64,000 nt of DNA from Fimicolochytrium jonesii (taxonomy: Eukaryota), in contig NW_026515700.1 of the NCBI RefSeq assembly GCF_025526975.1, forward strand, positions 124,001-188,000, written 5' to 3'. The translations under genes were made by a program, and so were the position numbers. Positions within the stretch are counted from its first letter, which is position 1. Each line of letters begins with the position of its first letter. Below, in pieces: positions 415 to 64,000 of this stretch. The notes below the pieces were generated by a model. That model saw only the letters and a program-made list of their open reading frames with translations. It ran no database searches and was not told where the DNA came from.

Positions 415-993
415 CTATTGCTGCCGGGCGTGGGAATATCCACCGTTTCCTGCGTCGAAACTTGGAGGGGAGAACTGACGGAATGCCGCAGTTTCTTTTG
501 CCTTCTGTCGTATGGCGATTGCTGTCCGAGTTGCGGTTGTGCTCTGCGGCTCCGAGTTGCTTATATATGGATGCGAGACCTGGTTCCGTAGGTCGACTGT
601 GTTGCCTGTTGGGAGCTGTGAATTTGAAAGACCGCCTGTGGTTGTGCTGAAGTGACTTTTCATCCCTGTGGAGCCTGCGGTTTGGCGTCGGTGATTATTT
701 ACGCTGCGCTTGCTCACGCGACTCCCACGCACTCCGAACTGCCTCCGAACCCCCGCAAACTCGCTGTAACAACGGGCTCCAAGACTGTTTGCTTTCCACA
801 CATGGGAAGTTTCCAAGGCGACCAACTTGTACTGCAGTGCATCCATCGAATCAATGAAATGTGGAGCTGTCGAAGCGACGGGGCGCACCGCCGCGGCCAA
901 ATGTCTCGGACAGAGGGGTCCAATCTCGGCTTCTTTCCCGCATTGGGTTCCCTGACGCTTTCCGGTTTTGAACACGTACGCGCAGTTAGTCAT
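415..993 (-). pseudogene. NCLDV-like ORF with N-terminal C-x-C-x-C-H Zn-finger motif, probably degenerate downstream
   Basis: MTNCAYVFKTGKRQGTQCGKEAEIGPLCPRH resembles the C..F..G...G..C......C..H finger common in giant-virus proteins. Intronless and 76 bp downstream of the viral-type TBP ORF. The C-terminal half does not look protein-like. Confidence 0.45.
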
Positions 994-1068
994 AAGTTCT
1001 CAGATATCGTTCAGTGTATATTGAAAACACACAGGAAGGCTTTTTTTTTCGACAGCTGTCCATCCATC

Positions 1069-2039
1069 TCATCTGTAGGAAGATACCACCGCCTGTGTGG
1101 CCGCCTCGATCTCGGATCGATGTGCGGTGAAGAACTCCTGTAAGAACCGATATATCAAGTTCCCTTGTTCCATATTGGCCAGACCTGCGACATTCATTTT
1201 GCCACTGTTAAAGCACGATACGGATATGTCCTTGCAAGTGCATGCTTGTTTGTTCTGCACCGAGCATCTGCCCTGTTTCTCCGGATCGTCCCGGGTCGCC
1301 TCTTTGTAGTGATAGCGCAGGTTTACACCTGCGTTATCGTATGGCTCAAGGCGACTGTAAAAGCCGTTGTCGAGGAAGCAGCGATGCAATTTATCGCGAT
1401 TGATGCGGAACGGTGCTTGGAAGAACGTGTTGATCATGTGGACCTGAAAGGATGTCTCGGGAAGAGGCGCGGCGGGCCCCCACGTTGACGGCAGCGCACT
1501 AAAAGGATGTATTAGTACCCCTTATTCGACGAGGTACTTCCGTTGTCGTTCTCCATCAGCTATGAGCTTGCGTGTAGCCAGGACTGTTTTCGCCTTGACG
1601 AACGACTCTTTCCCAATGATAGTGTGGCCAAAGTATACATAGCCGAACTTCACGTCAAAATTTCGCCTGTTCGCGTCTCGATCAAAGCGCAATCGCAACA
1701 CCGCTCAAGGTATAAACCGACTTTTCGCCATCTTGCCATTTTTCGCTGACGAACAGGGGCGTTTTCTGCGCCCGACTAGAGTCTCCTGCGTCGCGTAGCT
1801 GATCGGCCAGGCCCGAGATCTGTCCCAAAGGCGTGAGGACGACGTATTCGCTGCCAATGTGAGCCACGTCTGGTGATGATCCGGCAGCCCAGCCGACGAT
1901 AGTTGGTGATGTACGTATGAGTTTGAGTTCGCGGGTGTTGTGCGTTTGGAGGCTGAAAAGACGAGGATGGTTGCTGAGATCGCACGCCGGCCGCCGCTAA
2001 TGCTAGTGCAAGCATATTTAAATCCAGCCGTACCTCCAC
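1069..2039 (-). pseudogene. Giant-virus (NCLDV) type TATA-binding-protein-like gene; C-terminal repeat intact (1069-1437), upstream part disrupted
   Basis: MINTFF..FRINRDKLH...GFYSRLEP...GVNLRYHY...GRC...CTCKDISVSCFNSGKMNVAG...EQ...YRFL matches the viral TBP pattern with its Cys-rich insertion, not the conserved fungal TBP. A possible N-terminal remnant LDLNMLALAL lies near 2030, with stops and frameshifts between. Confidence 0.7.
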
Positions 2040-2119
2040 GTCGTTTTCGTTGCCGCTGTCACGTCGTTTGTGGAAGTCATTCCGTGGCGTGCCCCAAATC
2101 CGTCCCCGGAAGTGCTAGT

Positions 2120-2568
2120 CGTAGAAATGGTGTTTGAAATATTGCTGATTTCATGCGCAGATTAAGGCGCACTACTACAGCGCATGGTGTCATGAGAGCT
2201 TTCGGTTGGTGGAGAATCGTGTCGGGGGCGCTTTCATGTGTGAGATCTTTGCCTACGTTTTTCGCATGTCAGTCGTATCCGAAGACATTACGTCGATGTG
2301 AAGCGAAGTTTCGGTAAGGCAGGTGTTTTAGATACAGTACAATCGTCGGAGTGTCGGGAACGCGAGTGCGTCATTTACTGGTGGAAAATTTTGACAGTAT
2401 TGACAGTGTCGTATGAAGGTTATGCGTATAAGATTTCGAGCGTAAATAGTCTGGTCGTGAGCTATTTTGTGTCAAATTGAATCTACCGTTCGTCGATAAT
2501 TCTAAGCGTAGAAATGGTGTTCGAAATATTGCTGATTTCATGCGAAGTTCTGGCGCACTACTACAGCG
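2120..2568 (+). repeat. Imperfect ~62-bp direct repeat pair (2120-2182 and 2507-2568)
   Basis: CGTAGAAATGGTGTT(T/C)GAAATATTGCTGATTTCATGCG...GGCGCACTACTACAGCG occurs twice. Confidence 0.9.
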
Positions 2569-3236: not shown

Positions 3237-4771
3237 ATGGCAGATGCCAATGCCACACTACCTGATGCATCGGCCGACGGAGATCAAGCTGCTGCAAACT
3301 TTTCGGTTTACATGCCAACTATATTATCATATTTAGGGGTAAGTGTTTGGATCTTCAAGTGTGGTCTTCATCGGTGTATAGGAACATATGATTCTAACAA
3401 CAACCCAGTGCGGGCTTTCCATAGGACTTTGTGTCCTGGTCATCATTACATATCTGCTTATCCATCGGTTCGAACCTAAGGTTGCAAACCGAGTCTCACT
3501 GCGCATTGCTGTGTTCTGCTCGCTCTTGGACCTATTGGCGGCTGTTTGGTACTTAGTAGCCACTGCACCTTCCTTAACGGGACCCGATATTTCACTATGC
3601 GGATGGTCGATCTTTCTCTACAACATCTTCCAGCTTGCGTCTTTGCTGATGACCGCAGCAATATCCGTCAACCTACTTATCGTTTTTGTATTCAAGAAGC
3701 CCCACCGGAGCTACTACGAATACATTTATTATGGGGCGACTTTTGTGATCTCCATCGGCTTCCCGACGGCTTGTATGGCCAGGGGCTATTATGGCTACAC
3801 TATTAGTGGAGAGTGCTGCTGGTACACGGTTGACGACGATACCTACACGGAGGAGGGCGCTCGCATATGGGAATGGGTCACCCTCTATGGATGGGTCGTA
3901 GCGATCTCGGGCTTCTGCTTCCTGACGCTGGTCCTGTTCTACATAAGCGTTAGCCGCCCCTTCAAAAGCGATACCAGTACACTGGAGAATCCGAGTCTTG
4001 CCACAAATGGGAAGCACAACAACTTCGGCGAAACGCAACTGGCAATTCGTCGTGTCGTCAGCCGCCTCAAATGGTACTCGGTTGTTCCGTTCGTGTCGCA
4101 GATGTTTTCTATCCTCTCGGACCTGGCCCCGCTCAAGGGCGATGCCATGTCGGTCGTTTATTGTATCGCGAATTTCACAGCTGGAGCGCAGGTGAGTCGC
4201 TGATACGGATTTCTTCGTCCTTTTACGCTCATGTTGCTCACTGGCAGGTTTTGTATAGGGCGCCATCATGGCAGTGATTTTCTTCACGCTGGACCCAGCC
4301 GTTGCATTTGTGCGTGAGAAATTTCGAGGTTACATGGTCTCAAAATATTACCTGAGACAATGCACAGGCGACCACATCGTAGCTACCTCAACAACACCAT
4401 TTGCTCAATCAGCCGCGATTTATTCACCGGCCGCCGACTCCGGTCCGGATTCATCGAGCTTATCGCATGCAACTTCGGGGGCTTCAGGCACACCGTTCAC
4501 CGGTGTACCGCCCCCCCGCTGGACGCCAAATTGGATAGCCTACCGCCTAACCGAGACCTGCCTTCTTCGCCCTGATGACGCGGCAAAGTACCTTGAACGA
4601 AAGCGGGAGAAGGCGAGAAAGCCTCTCGGGAGTGGGCAGCGGACAAGGTTCGCAAGACAAAGGACAGCCAATGTTGTTTCGTCGGTCACTGGAACTAACG
4701 CAGAAGCGGAGCGCCTCATGGATGGCGACGTTGCATTTATGGGCAGCATGGACGCTCTAGCATCTCTGTAA
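3237..4771 (+). CDS. 7-TM G-protein-coupled receptor (cAMP-receptor/Git3-like); exons 3237-3338, 3409-4191, 4259-4771
   Basis: Seven hydrophobic segments; NRVSLR, LC, CWY and QG..A.IF..DPA motifs; canonical GT/AG sites keep the frame. Confidence 0.8.
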
Positions 4772-18512: not shown

Positions 18513-19333
18513 CAGTCAGTGGACATAAAGCTGTGTGCATGCCAGATTAAGTCAGTGTCTGACGCGCGTTGCGCGACATCAACTCATCATCCTTAATCTT
18601 GGGGCATTGCAAAACCTGACCTAAATGAATGGATCTAGATCTGAATTTCGCTAATACCTAGTTGTCCCCCCATTGGCTGCGATTACGGCTGCCATTCTTG
18701 ATGGCCTTGACCGTGTCAATGCATCAAGATGCGGCTGCATTGTGGGCCATATAGTTTGCACAACGTTGTCCAACATTCCAGGGGTAGGGTTCGCTTTCGA
18801 TACCTTCCGTTTGAGCATTGCCCACAGATTCTCAATCGGATTGAGATCTGGACTCTGCGCTGGCCAGGGAAGAAGCTCAATGCCATGTTCATCAAAGAAC
18901 TGTCGAGTTTCAGCCGATGTATGAATAGGCGGAACGACAATACTGCGAAAGGCAGCCAAATCATCGTCAGAAGGCTGGTACTTAGCTGGTCTTCCTGTTG
19001 GCTTCTTCGATTGATAGGCGGTTGGTGCAGTGGCACTCTCGTTTGCAAACCTCTTAATAGTGTTCCTCACAGTATTCCTGTGAACGTGCTCCTGCCTTGC
19101 AATTTCAGATGTCATCTTGCCTGCTATATGGAGGGCAACTATGGCTGCCCTTTTTTGTGGTGTGAGAGGTTTCCCCATAGCTGAGGTGGTGAAGATGTTG
19201 GCGTGCATTTCGCCATCACGGCTTCGTCGCTGGCTTCAATACTCAAGCTTGCGGCTCCAAAACGCGCGGTGCGCTTTGTGAAACGGTCATTGAAATCCAT
19301 ATGGGGTGCACACAGCTTTTTGTCCACTGACTG
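18513..19333 (-). mobile_element. Tc1/mariner DNA transposon, internally deleted (non-autonomous), 821 bp
   Basis: 27-bp TIRs CAGTCAGTGGACA(T/A)AAAGCTGTGTGCA (18513-18539 and 19307-19333) with TA target duplications (18511-12 and 19334-35). Confidence 0.93.
18651..19208 (-). pseudogene. Tc1 transposase remnant: HTH fused in frame to the C-terminal catalytic segment
   Basis: N-terminal HTH (..SEIARQEHVHRNTVRNTIKRF..GRP) is joined directly to WPAQSPDLNPIENLW and AVIAANGGTTRY. The first two Asp motifs of the DDE triad are absent. Confidence 0.88.
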
Positions 19334-19642
19334 TACGCCTCAGACTGATTGCCTATGTGACTCCTGTTGACTCATGCCAGGAGGCGCGTTTCGGTCGAGC
19401 ACTGGGTACTACTGGGTAACTGGCTGGGTAACTGGGTTGATCCCTATACGAACGTGCACTTGCAACTGATTACATCTCTCTTTGTGTCTCCATACGATAG
19501 CTTGTTCCCCGCCGGCTGGTCGTTATACTATACGTATTCATTGTGCAGAGCACTTCCCCTCTCTCTCGCAAACCAAATACGAAAACAGCTTTGCCGACAC
19601 AATCACCTCCCGATACCACCCACTACTCGCATTCCCTCCCCA

Positions 19643-21085
19643 ATGTCAAAAAAAGCACCGGCAAAGACAAGTCGTCAAGCCGCACCTGCGGAGCCTACGG
19701 ACCCTGCGAAGGCCTTTGCGATCCCCAAGTTTAAACGCCTTGTTTCCGAGATTCTCCGTCACTTTGGTGACGGGTCCATCCAGTCGAGCGCCGTTGGGGC
19801 GCTACAGGAAATAGCCGGAGAATATGTCACGTATCTTCACAAGCACTATAAAGGCATATCCCGTGGAAGCGAGAAAGTTGGATCTGAGAACGGGGCGATG
19901 GGAATAATGGAGAAGGTTATGGTCAATCTGGATCTGAAGGATTTGAAGGCGGCTGCCAAGGTTTACGAGGCAGCGGGTTCCGGCTCCGCTGAGGCAGGGG
20001 ATTCTCTCTCGGAGGGCTGGAAACGTTCCATTCGCCTTCTGGCCCGCCGCGGCGGCGCCGAGATTCCCTCTGACGGTGTTTGCAAAATGACCTTCGACCT
20101 TTTGGTGTGCTTCCTGGAAAACATAATTCGTGATGCTTTGACGTATGCACAATTTGGGAAGAGAAGGACCGTCAACTCACTTGACATTGTGTATGCTCTC
20201 AAGCGGTTGAGCCGGTCGGCAGAAGAGTCGGCAGAAGAGTCCGCAGAAGAGTCGGGGGAAGACTCGCATGACGCCTCTAGGTGTCCCACTCCACAAGAAT
20301 CATCCGACGGTAGTAGCTCGAAGTCGAAGCCGAAGCCGATTCAACAACGCTCAGCAAAACGGAAAGCGCGTGAAGATGATGTACTTGTTGTCGAGGAGGC
20401 AGCCAACACTTTACAGGAATCATCCGAAGGTAGTAGTAGCTCGAAGCCAAAGCTACCCCAGCAACGCTCAGCAAAACGTAAAGCGAGTGTAAATGATGTA
20501 ATTGTTGTCGAGGAGGCCACCAAGCCTCCACGGCGGCACAACGACTCTGACAGTGCACTGGACAGCAGTACGGATCCCGATTCAGAATCAAACTCAGAAT
20601 TCTGTTATGCTCGGTTCAAGAAAGAGAGGGCAGAGAGAGCGCGGAGAAACGCTCGCAAGTTGGAGGATGCCGAGTTCAAGGTCATTCGTGACGTAAATTT
20701 GGGGTCGCTATCAAGCGACATGGCCAAGGCGGCCGTCTACGAAATCGCTTTCAACAGCAAAAGGAGCATCATGTATGTTGGAATGACCACCAATATGGCT
20801 GACCGCCTTCAACAACATCTCGGCTTCAAGAAGGTCGATAAGAAATGCTCGCATATCGCTCCAATGGTCCAATATGCAATCGAGAAGAATGTGGTTGTTC
20901 TCTATCGTTGCGTGTATGTCGGATCCGGGCAAGCTGCGATCGATGCCGAGCAGCACATGTTGGACAAGTACTGGTACGAGTGGAATAAACGAGATAATAC
21001 GCCCAAGGACAAGGCGGGCAAAAAGGCAAAAAAGGAGGCTTTAGAAAAATCGAAGGGACATCGGACACGAAAGACTGCAGCCTAG
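19643..21085 (+). CDS. Histone H3-like + histone H4-like doublet fused to an ET/HRT-type GIY-YIG nuclease (about 480 aa, intronless)
   Basis: H3 fold IPKFKRLVSEIL..IQSSAVGALQEIAGEYV...LKDLKAAAKV (~19710-19970). H4 fold SIRLLARRGG...FLENIIRDALTYAQFGKRRTVNSLDIVYALKR (~20010-20210). S/E/K-rich repetitive linker. Nuclease AVYEI..MYVGMT.NMADRLQQH..SHI..VLYR..AEQHMLDKYWYEWNKRDN (~20730-21000). Confidence 0.85.
   Translation: MSKKAPAKTSRQAAPAEPTDPAKAFAIPKFKRLVSEILRHFGDGSIQSSAVGALQEIAGEYVTYLHKHYKGISRGSEKVGSENGAMGIMEKVMVNLDLKDLKAAAKVYEAAGSGSAEAGDSLSEGWKRSIRLLARRGGAEIPSDGVCKMTFDLLVCFLENIIRDALTYAQFGKRRTVNSLDIVYALKRLSRSAEESAEESAEESGEDSHDASRCPTPQESSDGSSSKSKPKPIQQRSAKRKAREDDVLVVEEAANTLQESSEGSSSSKPKLPQQRSAKRKASVNDVIVVEEATKPPRRHNDSDSALDSSTDPDSESNSEFCYARFKKERAERARRNARKLEDAEFKVIRDVNLGSLSSDMAKAAVYEIAFNSKRSIMYVGMTTNMADRLQQHLGFKKVDKKCSHIAPMVQYAIEKNVVVLYRCVYVGSGQAAIDAEQHMLDKYWYEWNKRDNTPKDKAGKKAKKEALEKSKGHRTRKTAA
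20215..20518 (+). repeat. Intragenic repeats in the histone-nuclease linker: (SAEE)x3 and two ~105-bp copies (QESS.GSSS...QQRSAKRKA..DV.VVEEA)
   Basis: Direct copies at about 20294-20400 and 20414-20518; the reading frame is preserved. Confidence 0.85.
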
Positions 21086-57278: not shown

Positions 57279-58116
57279 TGTTATGGACGACGCGCCCATA
57301 CCATAAGCTTACCTACTGACAGCCGCCAATGTCAACCGCCAAATGTCAAACGCCAATGTCAATGTCAATGTCAGTGTCAATGTCAGTGTCAATGTCAATG
57401 TCAATGTCAGTGTCAATGTCAATGTCAATGCCACTCCCCCTCTCTCCTCTCATTTCGCCAATCCTCTTGCAATATCGCCACTCCTCCTCTCTCCTCTCAT
57501 TTCGCCAATCCCCCCTCGGCTTCTCCACACCCCCCACTACTTCCCCATAGCCAGCAGCTGTAGCAATGCTCTCTACGCTCGCCACGCACGCTCTAGGAGC
57601 ATAGCTGACGCCCCCCCAGTCCCCTCTTGTTGTTGTTGTTCTCTGATCTGCTGGGTTGCCTATCTATAAATAGCCGGCCTCTCTTCGTCCGTTCCCTTCC
57701 TCCCCAGCAGATCAACACCAGTTCTTCTCATCTCCTGTTCTAGTCCTTGTTTCTTGTTTCGCCAATAAAATCTCTTGTCGCCTATCACTCTCGCCCTGTC
57801 TTCTCTACTTCGCTTCCGCCTCCGTCGTCGAGGTCATAACAGTTTGATCTGCTCCAACACTGCGAAGTTCAGAACCCGTCCAGCCCTGCATCCGACAAAC
57901 CTTTTTCGCCATGTCCCAACCCGAATCCGTACCTTTCACCGCCAAGCAATGGAACGATATGTGCCAAGCCATCGCCGCCTTGCAAAGCCAAAACGCCAAC
58001 TTGCAGGCCAACCTAGCGCAAGCCCAAGCCGACGCACAAGCTGCCCAGAGCATCGCCGCCCAGGTTCAAGCCGATACGTACACCCGTCCCCAAGCCACCA
58101 ACCCTGCTCTGGAGCC
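57279..58116 (+). mobile_element. Truncated Ty3/gypsy element A: 5' LTR (57279-57841), PBS and gag start (57911), interrupted by element B
   Basis: TGTTATG...CATAACA termini; PBS GTTTGATCTGCTC; the gag stub MSQPESVPFTAKQWNDMCQAI is homologous to gag of element B. Confidence 0.85.
57354..57430 (+). repeat. Hexamer microsatellite (AATGTC/AGTGTC)n inside LTR A
   Basis: About 12 tandem units seen directly. Confidence 0.95.
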
Positions 58117-58697
58117 TGTTATGGACGACGCGTCCATACCATGCGCTTACCTCATGACAGCATCCCAACAGTCAGTCAATGTCAATTCCCTGTCAAAACC
58201 TGACATCTGCCAAACCTCGCAGCCGCACGCAGCCGCGCTACCCCACACCTGCCACTGCCTTCATTTCTCCACGCAGCCGCACGTAGCCACACCTCCCAAC
58301 ACTCGGCGCTTACAAACCCTTCTCCATACTTCCCCACGTACCCGCCCACAGCCTCAGCGTAGCCACCCCATCCCCAGTCTTCTGTTTCTATGCTTCCCCA
58401 CCCTTGGCGCTTCTCTTGGCTTCCCTCTCATTCCGTACCCTTCTGCTTCCCCACGCTTCCCCAGCCTTCCCAGAAAAACATAAATAGCCGCCTCCCCTGA
58501 GCTCCCCACTTCCTGATCCCCAAGCAGATCAACACCAGTTCTTCCTAGTCTTGTTCTAGTTCTTGTTTCGGTCTGAATACCATTACCTGTCAACAACCTG
58601 CACCACAAGTCGCCTCTATTTCCACCGGCTCCGCCCATTCATAACAGTTTGATCTGCTCAACAACCCCCAGCCGCTGTGCCTCCACGCCAAATCACC

Positions 58698-59623
58698 ATG
58701 TCCGACGCCCTTCCCCTCACGGCCGAAGCCTGGCAAACCATGTGCAATGCGATTGACGAACTTCGAGCGCAGAATACCACCCTACAAGCCGAAAAAGCGC
58801 AAACCCAGACCACTGCCCCTGCCACTCACGCCCCCGAACCCAAAATCAGTCTCCCAGACAAATTTGATGGCACCCGAAGCAAGTTCCGTGGGTTCCTCAA
58901 CCAGATCCGGCTCATGTTCGCCCTCCAACCCAGGCGCTACCCAAACGATCAGACCAAGATACGAACTATTGGCACCTACCTCACTGGCACCGCCCAGGCC
59001 TGGCTGGCGCCCCTTGTCGAACAAGACCATCATTCCCTTACGAACCTGGATGATTTCATCCAGCAAATGCAAGCAGTCTTTGGAGACAGCGACAGGATCC
59101 GCACGTCTGAAAACAAGCTCCAGAACCTTCGACAAACCCATGCAGCAACAGAGTATGTAGCTGAATTCCGACAGCTGCAATGCGATGTGTCGTGGAATGA
59201 CCAGGCATGATTGCCACCTTCCGTCGCGGCCTCAAAGAAGACGTCAAGGACTTAATGCTCACGATGCCCCCTACCGCCTCAATTGACACCGTGATGGAAC
59301 AGGCCATCCAATGTGACAACCGATTGTTTGAGCGCCGTCTAGAGCGAAGCAGGAACCAACAGCCATATGTGCCAGTTACCACTAGCCCCACCCTCATGAG
59401 CCCCGACAACCGCCCAGACGACCCTATGATCATTGACGCTGCTCGTCCGCGAGGACCCCTCACACCGCTAGAGCGCCAACACCGCATCACAAACAAACTT
59501 TGCCTCTACTGTGGTAAACCCGGCCACATAGCCAAACTCTGCCCGAACAAGATACGCACGGCAAATGTCGCGGTTAAGGAACCTGCACCCATCCAGGATT
59601 TTGCCCAAGTCCAGCTGCAGTAA
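58698..59623 (+). pseudogene. gag: gag with CCHC zinc knuckle, frameshifted near 59208
   Basis: PEPKISLPDKFDG..F; L.QT...EYVAEF; CLYCGKPGHIAKLC; split over two frames. Confidence 0.9.
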
Positions 59624-59781
59624 AGGCCGAGCAGCTGGGCAACACCTGTCCTGGGCCTTCTCACCACGCAAGTACTGCCAAGGGAGAAGCCACAAAACCT
59701 TGCTCCGATCCTGGCATCTCCAGCAACACCCTTCTCCTGACCACCAACAATGTCAATCTCCTATCTGAGATACCCTCACCC

Positions 59782-62700
59782 ATGCGGACTTTGGGCCCAT
59801 CCTCACCATTCGAGTACCCTGTTACCCTGCAGATATCGGCCCAGCGAGCTCCAGTTCAGCTTTCAGCACTACTCGACACCGGTGCGATGTCGTGCTTCAT
59901 CGACGAAAGTTATGCCCGCAAGCACCGCATCCCACTTGTCAAGAAGGAGGACCCCATTGCGCTTGAACTGGTTGACGGACGTCCCAGCCATGCGGGCTCC
60001 ATTACCCATCACACCCAACCTTTGGGCATGTGGGTCAACGACCATTTTGAGGAGGTGGTATTCCATGTGACATGTTCCCCGCATGCGCCAATCATCCTGG
60101 GCTTCCCTGGTTTGAGCTCCATGATGTGGAGCTACACTGGAAGACTCGCACTCTTTGCGTCCGCTGCCATTGCGGTTTTGGACAATACGCCTCCTGGGAT
60201 GCCCTGCCAACAGAACCTAGCCCGAAGCCCTCAAAAACCCCTGAACCTCTGATCCGTATCCATCAAGACGAGATTTCAGTCTCCCTAGCCCAGACACCCA
60301 ACACACTGGACCCAGCACCCACACCGACCCACGTATCGTTTATCAGTGCCCCAGCTTTCCGTGTGGCGGCAAGGCATGACCAGGCATTCATTGCCTACGC
60401 CAATCCGACCAAGTCAGATTCCCAAGCCCTGGCGACCTTTCCTCCAAAAGATCCGAAGGCCATCATTCCTGAAGAATACCAAGATTTTGCGGACGTCTTC
60501 GCCAAGAAGAACGCGGATACCCTCCCAGAGCACCGACCCTACGACTGTCCCATCGACTTAGAAGAGGGCAAACAGCCACCGTTCGGCCCGATCTATAGTC
60601 TCAGCGAGCCTGAAATGCAGGCACTCTGTGACTACCTTGAAGAGAACCTAGCTAAGGGGTTCATCAAGCACTCCAAGTCTCCCGCCGGTGCCCCAGTCCT
60701 CTTTGTCAAGAAAAAGGACGGTTCCCTCCGTCTGTGCGTCGACTATCGTGGACTCAACAATATCACCATCAAGAATCGCTATCCCTTGCCCTTGATTAAC
60801 AGCATCATGGATCGTCTTCGAGGGGCACGCCGGCTCACCAAGATTGACCTCCGGGGAGCCTACAACCTTCTTCGGATCCGGCCAGGGGATGAATGGAAGA
60901 CAGCGTTCCGATGTCGCTACGGCCTATTCGAGTATAATGTCATGCCGTTTGGGCTCACCAATGCCCCTGGAGTATTCCAACACCTCATGAACGACATATT
61001 CCGTGACATTCTCGACGTTTTTGTTGTGGTCTACCTTGACGACATTCTGATCTTCTCAAAAAACCCAGAAGACCACCCCAACCACGTCCGAGAGGTGCTC
61101 TCACGACTCCGCCAGCACGGGCTGTATGCGAAACCGGAAAAATGCGAATTCAACCGTGACTCTGTTGAGTTCCTGGGGTTTATCATCTCCAGCAAGGCAT
61201 TTCCATGGACCCAAAGAAGACGGCTGCCATTACCGAATGGGAACCCCCAACGAATGTCAAAGGCATCCAGCGCTTCCTTGGTTTCGCCAACTTCTACCGG
61301 CGATTCATCAAAGGGTACTCTGCGATCGTTGCACCCCTGACCACGCTCACTCGCAAAGACTTGCCCTTCAAATGGACCCACGCTGCACACCTAGCTTTTG
61401 AAACCCTCAAGAAAGCCTTCACCTCTGCACCTATCCTGACTCACCCCGACCCTGACAAGCCCTTCATTGTCGAATCCGATGCCTCCGACTTTGCCCTTGG
61501 CGCCGTCCTCCTTCAACCCGATGACACAGATCAACTCCACCCCGTGGCCTTTCACTCCCGCACATTTACTCCTGAGGAAATCAACTATGAGATCTACGAC
61601 AAGGAACTCCTGGCTATCCAAGACTCCTTTGCGACACCACCTCATTGGTGCCCGCCACAAGGTCATCGTTTACTGTGACCACAAGAACCTCCAGTACTTC
61701 ATGACTACCCGTACCCTCAACCGCCGCCAATCCCGCTGGTCAATCTTCTTTGCTGATTTCGACTTTGTCATCACATACCGCCCTGGTACCCAGCAACACC
61801 AAGCTGACGCCCTCTCTCGTCGCTCTGAATACGAGCTAAGGGAGGGGGAAGAAGCATTCCGCTCCCAGGAAACCACGATCCTCACCCCTGACCATCTCCG
61901 CCTGGCCGCCACTTATCTGACCCCACTGGACTCCTCGCTCCTTGACCAAATCAAAGCTGCCCTGGCATCCGATGTGTTTGCGCAAACCATCCGGCGACAG
62001 CTTAGGGCCCCCATTGCCCAGCAATCTCAAGAAGATCAAGAACGGATAAAGCGATTCTCCGAGGAAAATGGGGTTCTGCTGTACGACAACCTTGTCTACG
62101 TCCCCACCAACAAGCTCCGTGCTGAGATCTGCCGGGACATGCATGACACGCGTTTGGCAGGACACTACGGCATGTCAAAGACCCTGGAGCTCATCTCACG
62201 CAACTACTGGTGGCCTAGCCAATGGCGTTTTGTCAAGTCCTACATCAGGTCCTGCGACGTATGTGCTCAAGCCAAGACCGGCAGACACAAGCCCTACGGT
62301 CTCCTCCAACCCCTGCAGGTCCCTGACCGCCCCTGGGGGTCAATTTCCATGGACTTCATCACGGATCTACCCGCCAGTGATGGGGTTGATTCTGTGCTTG
62401 TTGTCATCTGCCGGTTCACCAAGATGGCGCACTTTGTACCGTGCAGGAAAACTGCCACCGCTGAGTCAACTGCAGATCTGATCTGGCACCATGTCATCCG
62501 GCTCCATGGACTCCCCGACGATATTGTATCTGACCGTGGCCCACAGTTCAACTCCCACTTCTGGAAACGTCTCTTCGCTCTCCTGGGAACCAAGGTCAAC
62601 CTCTCATCGGCGTTCCATCCCCAGAGCGATGGACAAACCGAGTGGACCAATCAGATTCTTGAGCAATACCTTCGCTGCTTTTGCAACTATCAACAAGATA

Positions 62701-63440
62701 ACTGGAAGGAACTCTTGTCTTCTGCTGAGTTCTCTTACAATAACACCATCCACTCCGCCACCCAGACAACCCCCTTCTACGCCAACTATGGGTTCCATCC
62801 TCGATTCAGTCTGGCTTCCGCCACCACAACCGAATCCCTTAATCCTGCAGCCGAAGCTCGTGCCAACCATCTCAAGGAAATCCATGAACAGCTTGCCACT
62901 GAGCTCAAGGAGGCCCAAGGACGCATGAAGCGCTTTGCCGATGCTAAGAGGGCACCTGGCCCAGACATGAAACCCGGGGACAGTGTCTGGCTCTTACAAC
63001 GGAATCTCAAGACTCTCCGACCTTCCCAGAAACTTGATCACCGTAAGATTGGCCCCTTCACAATCACGGAGAAGATCAACTCGGTCACATATCGCCTCAA
63101 GCTTCCCCCATCCTACAAAATTCACAACGTCTTCCATGTCTCCCTTCTTGAACCACGTTTCACCATTCCGGAGCGAACTGAGCCAGAACCCACCCCACCA
63201 GAAGAAGTCGAAGGACAGGAGGAATGGATTGTGGAAGACATTCTTGACTCCCGTATTCGACGCACGCACCTTCAGTACCTCATCAAGTGGCAGGGTTGGC
63301 CAAGCTCGGAGAACACATGGGAGCCAGTGGAACACCTTGCCCGATGTCAAGAGCTTGTTGCCCAGTTCCACCAAAAGTACCCCGACAAACCCCGACCAAA
63401 GCCTGCCAACATCAAAACAACATCCGGACGCCGTGGCTAA
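59782..63440 (+). pseudogene. pol: pol (protease, RT, RNase H, integrase, chromodomain) with frameshifts near 60105, 61197 and 61635
   Basis: [76 protein letters not shown]. Confidence 0.93.
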
Positions 63441-64000
63441 AGGAGGGGTTGATGTTATGGGCGACGCGTCCATACCATGCGCTTACCTCATGACAGCATC
63501 CCAACAGTCAGTCAATGTCAATTCCCTGTCAAAACCTGACATCTGCCAAACCTCGCAGCCGCACGCAGCCGCGCTACCCCACACCTGCCACTGCCTTCAT
63601 TTCTCCACGCAGCCGCACGTAGCCACACCTCCCAACACTCGGCGCTTACAAACCCTTCTCCATACTTCCCCACGTACCGCCCACAGCCTCAGCGTAGCCA
63701 CCCCATCCCCAGTCTTCTGTTTCTATGCTTCCCCACCCTTGGCGCTTCTCTTGGCTTCCCTCTCATTCCGTACCCTTCTGCTTCCCCACGCTTCCCCAGC
63801 CTTCCCAGAAAAACATAAATAGCCGCCTCCCCTGAGCTCCCCACTTCCTGATCCCCCAGCAGATCAACACCAGTTCTTCCTAGTCTTGTTCTAGTTCTTG
63901 TTTCGGTCTGAATACCATTACCTGTCAACAACCTGCACCACAAGTCGCGTCTATTTCCATCGGCTCCGCCCATTCATAACATCAGGGGTGCAACGATCGC

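Follow-up and report, generated by a model that had tools for sequence, protein, structure and literature searches.

Giant-virus fossils and proviruses have been described in zoosporic fungi, and for Fimicolochytrium jonesii JEL569 a solo major-capsid gene is reported, on a contig that is host-like and otherwise fungal (PMC13533422). The same report distinguishes at least five fungi-associated giant-virus clades; neither TBP nor TATA occurs in its text, with the supplement partly covered, and the locus described below is not mentioned there. None of the seven ViralRecall regions listed for the F. jonesii genome in the part of PMC13524828 that was available lies on a contig of the matching size (327 kb), and the literature searched held no report on this locus. 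The locus itself is new, and giant-virus relics of such a kind have already been reported for Fimicolochytrium jonesii. In the Nucleocytoviricota, TBP is GVOGm0056 (PMC8575486).

The window, that is, the whole 64-kb stretch of DNA analysed here, contains a short segment that most likely derives from a giant virus of fungi and survives as a young, inactive fossil. With a probability of about 85%, it represents ~1.1 kb of Nucleocytoviricota DNA made up of two neighbouring cut genes, likely from a fungus-infecting member of the Mycodnavirales, likely fixed between two host genes and likely non-functional. TBP-like and Lon-like homology lie side by side in the viral gene order, and the similarity is far above chance, with E values of 7e-55 to 4e-26 for the TBP-like ORF and 2e-20 for the Lon-like piece. 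Both genes are cut mid-gene; in addition to these two truncations, the disabling features of the segment are one stop and one frameshift. The relic carries none of the GVOG7 marker genes.

Searches by tblastn and profile in six frames confined viral homology in the window to ~790 to ~1921 on the minus strand, with one relative carrying it weakly on to 1966. The first-pass annotation had taken all of 415-2568 for an endogenous giant-virus fragment: the viral origin was borne out, and the extent proved overstated about twofold. In tblastn, the viral genes were recovered and the stop and the frameshift located, and 415-789 and 1970-2568 gave no match to the relatives of either gene. The right boundary at 2568 could not be retained as a viral edge; a ~65-bp direct repeat without a shown viral link ends there, its two copies lying 387 bp apart (2120-2182 and 2507-2568, 92% identical). 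This repeat lies in AT-richer, CpG-rich DNA, is unique in the window, and has no exact match in viral_contigs and no match in Rfam. The annotation's two tightly spaced, co-oriented ORFs are present on the minus strand with 72 bp between them: one spans 1069-1521, with 122 codons from its Met at 1437, and the other 415-999.

The uninterrupted 122-codon ORF (1069-1437, minus strand) encodes the second, C-terminal repeat of a TBP-like protein, with 71-74% identity to the relatives P0002-P0005, and bears a C-x-C / CKDISVSCFNSG motif. Its product matched 11 of 58 candidates, including ten other full or partial TBP-like proteins, at 49-74% identity, and these relatives are mostly 412-477 aa long. 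Upstream of the Met, 1438-1698 corresponds to the insert region between the repeats and contains an in-frame stop at 1522-1524; read in a single frame, ~1072/1078-1698 is 56-61% identical to P0002-P0005 (tblastn), with the stop inside the aligned stretch. Further upstream, 1921-1700 reads in another frame, as seen by tblastn and profile search, with a frameshift near 1700 where the relic is ~5 codons shorter than its relatives (tblastn). Thus the ORF proposed at 1069-1437 was real, and the gene span assigned to it was too short, as the gene continues upstream through both lesions. Overall, the retained TBP-like part is 51-54% identical to intact giant-virus TBPs of 430-450 aa. When the 64 kb were searched in six frames with a profile of 12 relatives, only profile positions 152-417 found a match; by this search and by tblastn, the window nowhere encodes the first ~150 residues of the gene, repeat 1 among them. 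The absent N-terminal part is the sole portion that Pfam recognises as TBP in intact relatives, where PF00352 scored at or above cut-off in four of six scanned; the 122-aa ORF alone has no Pfam match and no PDB sequence match (0 solved TBPs at E 10).

Assignment to viral TBP comes from cluster and structure comparisons. In the Atlas, the top clusters for the window ORF are Nucleocytoviricota TBP (score 0.95, with recognition just below the bar), and one of the 30 matches listed, the third cluster, is labelled Eukaryota/Nematoda; the intact relative P0003 likewise falls in Nucleocytoviricota TBP clusters. The AlphaFold model of P0003 (pLDDT 82) superposes on human TBP with Z 13.5 and rmsd 2.5 over 180 aligned residues at 14% identity, which gives the intact relatives a predicted two-repeat saddle fold. 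The model matches named giant-virus TBPs at E 6e-18 (BFVD), against E 4e-4 for cellular TBP, and its identity to cellular TBP cores in structural alignments is 8-15%. The earlier description of the 1069-1437 peptide as carrying a divergent viral TBP motif, unlike cellular TBP, therefore agrees with our results: the motif is there, and viral rather than cellular TBPs are the best matches in both the Atlas and BFVD.

TBP requires both repeats to form its DNA-binding saddle. The window copy, with repeat 2 and the larger part of the insert retained, is a TBP-derived pseudogene and not a complete TBP; because repeat 1 is missing, it is unable to form a two-repeat saddle alone. The insert that characterises this viral TBP subfamily measures ~175 residues, is mostly beta and is modelled with good confidence at ~138-315 of P0003; window positions 1921-1440 keep most of it.

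The neighbouring gene is represented by its first 69 codons (790-996, minus strand, ATG at 993), which belong to a Zn-finger, Lon-like AAA ATPase gene and are 67-72% identical to P0015 and P0169-P0171. Residues 1-80 of the 415-999 ORF gave one match among 24 candidates, namely P0015, a 434-aa protein with an AAA domain. P0015 itself matches TIGR00763 at 4e-49 over positions 256-572 of 795, the AAA part only, as well as PF00004, and has no Lon_C or protease-domain match. By tblastn, the Lon-like homology runs from 996 to 790 (67% to P0015) and then ends, so that the window fragment is without both the AAA+ module and the protease domain of Lon. A Zn finger of NCLDV type had been noted at the start of this ORF, and a Cys/His finger with giant-virus relatives is present; the low-confidence guess of a Lon-like segment is upheld by P0015 and its TIGR00763 match. 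Treating the finger and the segment as separate elements did not hold, as they are one gene, broken off after 69 codons.

The remainder of that ORF (415-789, minus strand) is an open tail with no tblastn match to P0015 and no viral homology, probably host DNA upstream of the SPX gene. Its 124 codons have a probability of staying open of ~0.07 under a Markov null, and GC by codon position is 0.54/0.57/0.55, i.e. without codon-position bias; the tail is a chance read-through. That the 194-aa ORF might be a new, chimeric gene was considered and rejected, given a tail compatible with chance and no identical ORF in the protein collection.

An AT-rich spacer of 72 bp with 39% GC (997-1068) separates the two viral genes, compared with ~310-370 bp in relatives. 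At three relatives' loci, the TBP and Lon-like genes are separated by a conserved ORF of 65-66 aa that is read from the opposite strand (L004:790-1190, L005:790-1140, L006:370-700), for which the window's spacer is too small; a search for remnants of it gave null fractions of 0.14 and 0.018, with the best matches on the other strand. Inteins are frequent in the viral Lon-like AAA gene, as with the Hint and LAGLIDADG domains in L003 (L003:1708-4101), and PF05203 occurs in 11 of the 54 closest Lon-like relatives (P0185, P0187, P0188, P0195, P0197, P0205, P0212, P0215, P0217, P0220, P0221).

In five of six metagenomic loci with a TBP relative, the Zn-finger Lon-like gene lies directly downstream of TBP on the same strand. 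Since L005-L007 are 98-100% alike, the TBP-then-Lon order amounts to three of four distinct viruses; in L002, a different gene follows TBP. The metagenomic loci with this order are gene-dense contigs. Furthermore, 11 of the 26 TBP clusters with a recorded contig size have exactly that size, and the source, in common with a Lon-like relative, the sizes shared by the closest relatives being 321,979, 62,136 and 15,010 bp. Such matching sizes suggest that TBP and Lon-like relatives sit on shared contigs, without implying adjacency. The closest intact relatives of the TBP (P0003) and of the Lon piece (P0015) both list the 321,979-bp contig, which is roughly as long as a complete Mycodnaviridae genome and is a candidate near relative of the donor.

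Phylogenies were built with FastTree from 63 rows each, leaving out proteins <250 aa and TBP hits ranked below P0079 and including no cellular TBP. The window TBP grouped with P0002-P0005 and P0016 at support 100, and the window Lon piece with P0169-P0171, P0015 and P0172 at support 99-100. Because the tree partners of the two pieces correspond, a single donor virus for both would be the simplest reading of the sequences. No TBP relative was found in viral_contigs or in GTDB genomes, and a TBP profile run on 81 IMG/VR Lon-like loci gave 0 matches; the Lon-like genes at those loci are distant (30-38%).

As to the lineage of the donor, Lon-like relatives are located on giant-virus contigs. In a Lon tree with IMG/VR loci, the donor clade (support 99) includes a Blyttiomyces helicus protein and groups (92) with a clade holding GVMAG-M-3300017788-49 and GVMAG-M-3300021108-1, apart from an IM_01 genome. 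This tree was calculated with three rows dropped and about a dozen partial rows, the IMG/VR scan spanned 14 of 64 parts, and no named MY_02 / Mycodnaviridae genome is among its rows. The two GVMAG genomes are assigned to IM_18 (PMC8575486), and within the Mycodnavirales IM_18 has since been renamed MY_03 and IM_02 has become MY_02, the Mycodnaviridae; 38 rows of viral regions are given for the Blyttiomyces assembly (PMC13524828). The placement makes it quite likely that the donor belonged to the Mycodnavirales, and its membership in the Mycodnaviridae appears reasonably likely. The TBP of Rhizophlyctis rosea falls in the wider TBP family. Two proteins filed under the moss Sphagnum tenellum (P0031 and P0197) nest in the viral TBP and Lon clades, which could reflect virus or fungal DNA in the moss assembly, or another endogenous element.

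The relic is flanked by an SPX-like gene and a divergent gene for a multi-pass membrane protein. The 5' end of the host SPX-domain gene occupies 1-327 on the minus strand, with its ATG at 327 and a probable intron after the first exon (GTATGG donor), and runs off the window; the match to PF03105 has an E value of 3e-4 and 21.4 bits, below the 27.8 cut-off. With this weak match, the viral ORFs lie directly upstream of a host SPX gene on the same strand, as had been annotated. On the other side, the membrane ORF (3382-4200, plus strand) has hydrophobic stretches, a GTGAGT donor and a weak 7TM GPCR resemblance (PF10320 at E 0.5 only). Beyond these, the window consists of ordinary eukaryotic DNA of the host, encoding a GCN2-like kinase, a PLU-1/PHD protein, a helicase, a DDE transposase remnant and a Ty3-like retroelement. 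Host genes on both sides of an endogenous element are thus found on one contig (SPX at 327 on one side; membrane gene at 3382, GCN2-like kinase and PLU-1/PHD protein on the other), and the viral piece was likely integrated into the chytrid chromosome. The earlier view of a small decayed viral insertion in a fungal host is upheld by the lesions, the truncations and these flanking genes.

Among the mobile elements of the window, a Ty3/Gypsy retroelement at 57848-64000 (plus strand) has reverse transcriptase, integrase and chromodomain in several frames and a strong C-over-G skew, and a DDE_3/HTH transposase remnant at 18654-19235 (minus strand) adjoins an ORF at 19361-21082 (plus strand) with bromodomain-associated and GIY-YIG matches. 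A bacterial promoter scan returned chance-level results and has no bearing on a fungal host.

To date the relic, we compared it with 12 relatives at 48 invariant columns, of which one is changed in the relic; intact relatives change 0-8 in a leave-one-out comparison. Extra decay at conserved sites was not seen across these columns. At 5% decay, one change or fewer has P ~0.03 or lower, and a rough Poisson estimate makes 1-3% decay compatible with one stop. We infer that the relic is young, with under ~5% neutral decay, although such slight decay would also be expected from recent purifying selection. Relic GC is 51-56%, compared with 54.5% for the window and 35-40% for the metagenomic loci, and because so little decay could not raise GC from 35-40%, the donor was probably already GC-rich.

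At either end, the relic breaks off within a gene; comparison of the flanks revealed no common word and no target-site duplication of >=7 nt. For the mechanism of insertion, we favour illegitimate end-joining, by which a loose fragment of viral DNA would have been captured during infection, at somewhat better than even odds; deletions that trimmed a larger provirus would be the alternative, with roughly one chance in three. Either gene would have lost its function, because TBP needs both repeats and the AAA domain of the Lon-like protein is absent.

A different outcome, which we regard as improbable, is that the relic has been domesticated, the host transcribing it and splicing out both lesions to yield a 235-aa half-TBP, or expressing the 122-codon ORF alone. 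A gene model of this kind exists: P0001, filed as Fimicolochytrium jonesii, is 235 aa long and 100% identical over the 122-aa ORF, and each of its three exons has an exact counterpart in the window (2080-2034, 1952-1722 and 1498-1069). Its intron 1 is bounded by GTACGG...TTTTCAG, intron 2 ends in a canonical-looking 3' site with a branch point and TAG and takes out stop and frameshift together, and the C-terminal repeat is uninterrupted with invariant residues kept. However, intron 2 (1721-1499) deletes ~70 codons with 39-48% identity to relatives (at 1698-1500, 61-66 codons align, of which 26-31 are identical), and its donor, GTCGGT, is weak; moreover, motifs of a branch point plus YAG occur in ordinary long open frames at 0.66 per kb. 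The spliced product would still lack repeat 1, and an intact stretch of 122 codons is expected at 1-3% decay. Gene predictors bypass stops by calling such introns, and we read the P0001 intron as a prediction artefact. If the model were correct, the fungus would have made an intron of the lesion-bearing part of a captured viral gene, and a virus-derived half-TBP would be expressed from upstream DNA shared with a phosphate-sensing SPX gene; this would be a giant-virus transcription factor domesticated very recently in a fungus.

The remaining explanations deny either the insertion or the viral origin. Giant viruses persist in chytrid cultures (PMC13533422), so DNA of a co-sequenced or latent virus might have been joined to the host contig as an assembly chimera. 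This is very unlikely, given that both genes are broken by stop, frameshift and truncations, unlike those of a live virus, that relic GC is near that of the window, that the window has no gap or N, and that the P0001 record lies on a contig of 327,040 bp. The idea of a decayed cellular TBP/TRF paralogue beside an unrelated Zn-finger gene is effectively refuted: the fold is that of TBP, and some relatives are filed as eukaryotic (Rhizophlyctis, Sphagnum, Blyttiomyces), but no solved TBP is matched in sequence and structural identity is minimal, as given above, and the long insert between repeats, the lack of introns, the gene order of gene-dense metagenomic contigs and the Lon-like relatives on giant-virus contigs all speak against it. 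The reading of the segment as an integrated, inactive giant-virus fossil is the one we retain.

With this locus, a chytrid noted for its solo capsid gene gains a second giant-virus relic, apparently an independent one, and the locus illustrates that kilobase-scale, capsid-free fragments escape screens based on capsid genes or long viral regions. The TBP to Lon-like pair appears conserved across a soil- and fungus-associated virus clade and can serve as a marker in seeking the donor, with close intact relatives on the 322-kb contig. What is known of giant viruses in fungi is unchanged by the locus.

Compared with Nucleocytoviricota TBP as described for GVOGm0056 (PMC8575486), the intact relatives share the predicted two-repeat fold and match named viral TBPs best; they differ in forming a longer subfamily (430-477 aa) with the insert between repeats, and the window copy has lost repeat 1. 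In relation to viral Lon-like AAA ATPases (TIGR00763-like, PF00004), the N-terminal Zn finger and the next helix match relatives labelled 'ATP-dependent Lon protease' (JGI), whereas P0015 covers the AAA part of Lon only and the window keeps 69 codons. Fungal dsDNA-virus fossils found with a DNA polymerase probe (PMC7017919) likewise have NCLDV-like genes that are interrupted by stops and frameshifts and lie on long fungal contigs, but the marker genes differ, as do the virus clades according to PMC13533422. A parallel also exists with endogenous elements and fossils of the Mycodnaviridae (MY_02, formerly IM_02; PMC13533422; order Mycodnavirales, PMC13524828), as far as these sources describe them: in both cases, and in the same species, giant-virus genes with host-like GC sit within a host contig of a chytrid, and the present locus differs in comprising 1.1 kb of TBP and Lon-like pieces without a capsid gene.
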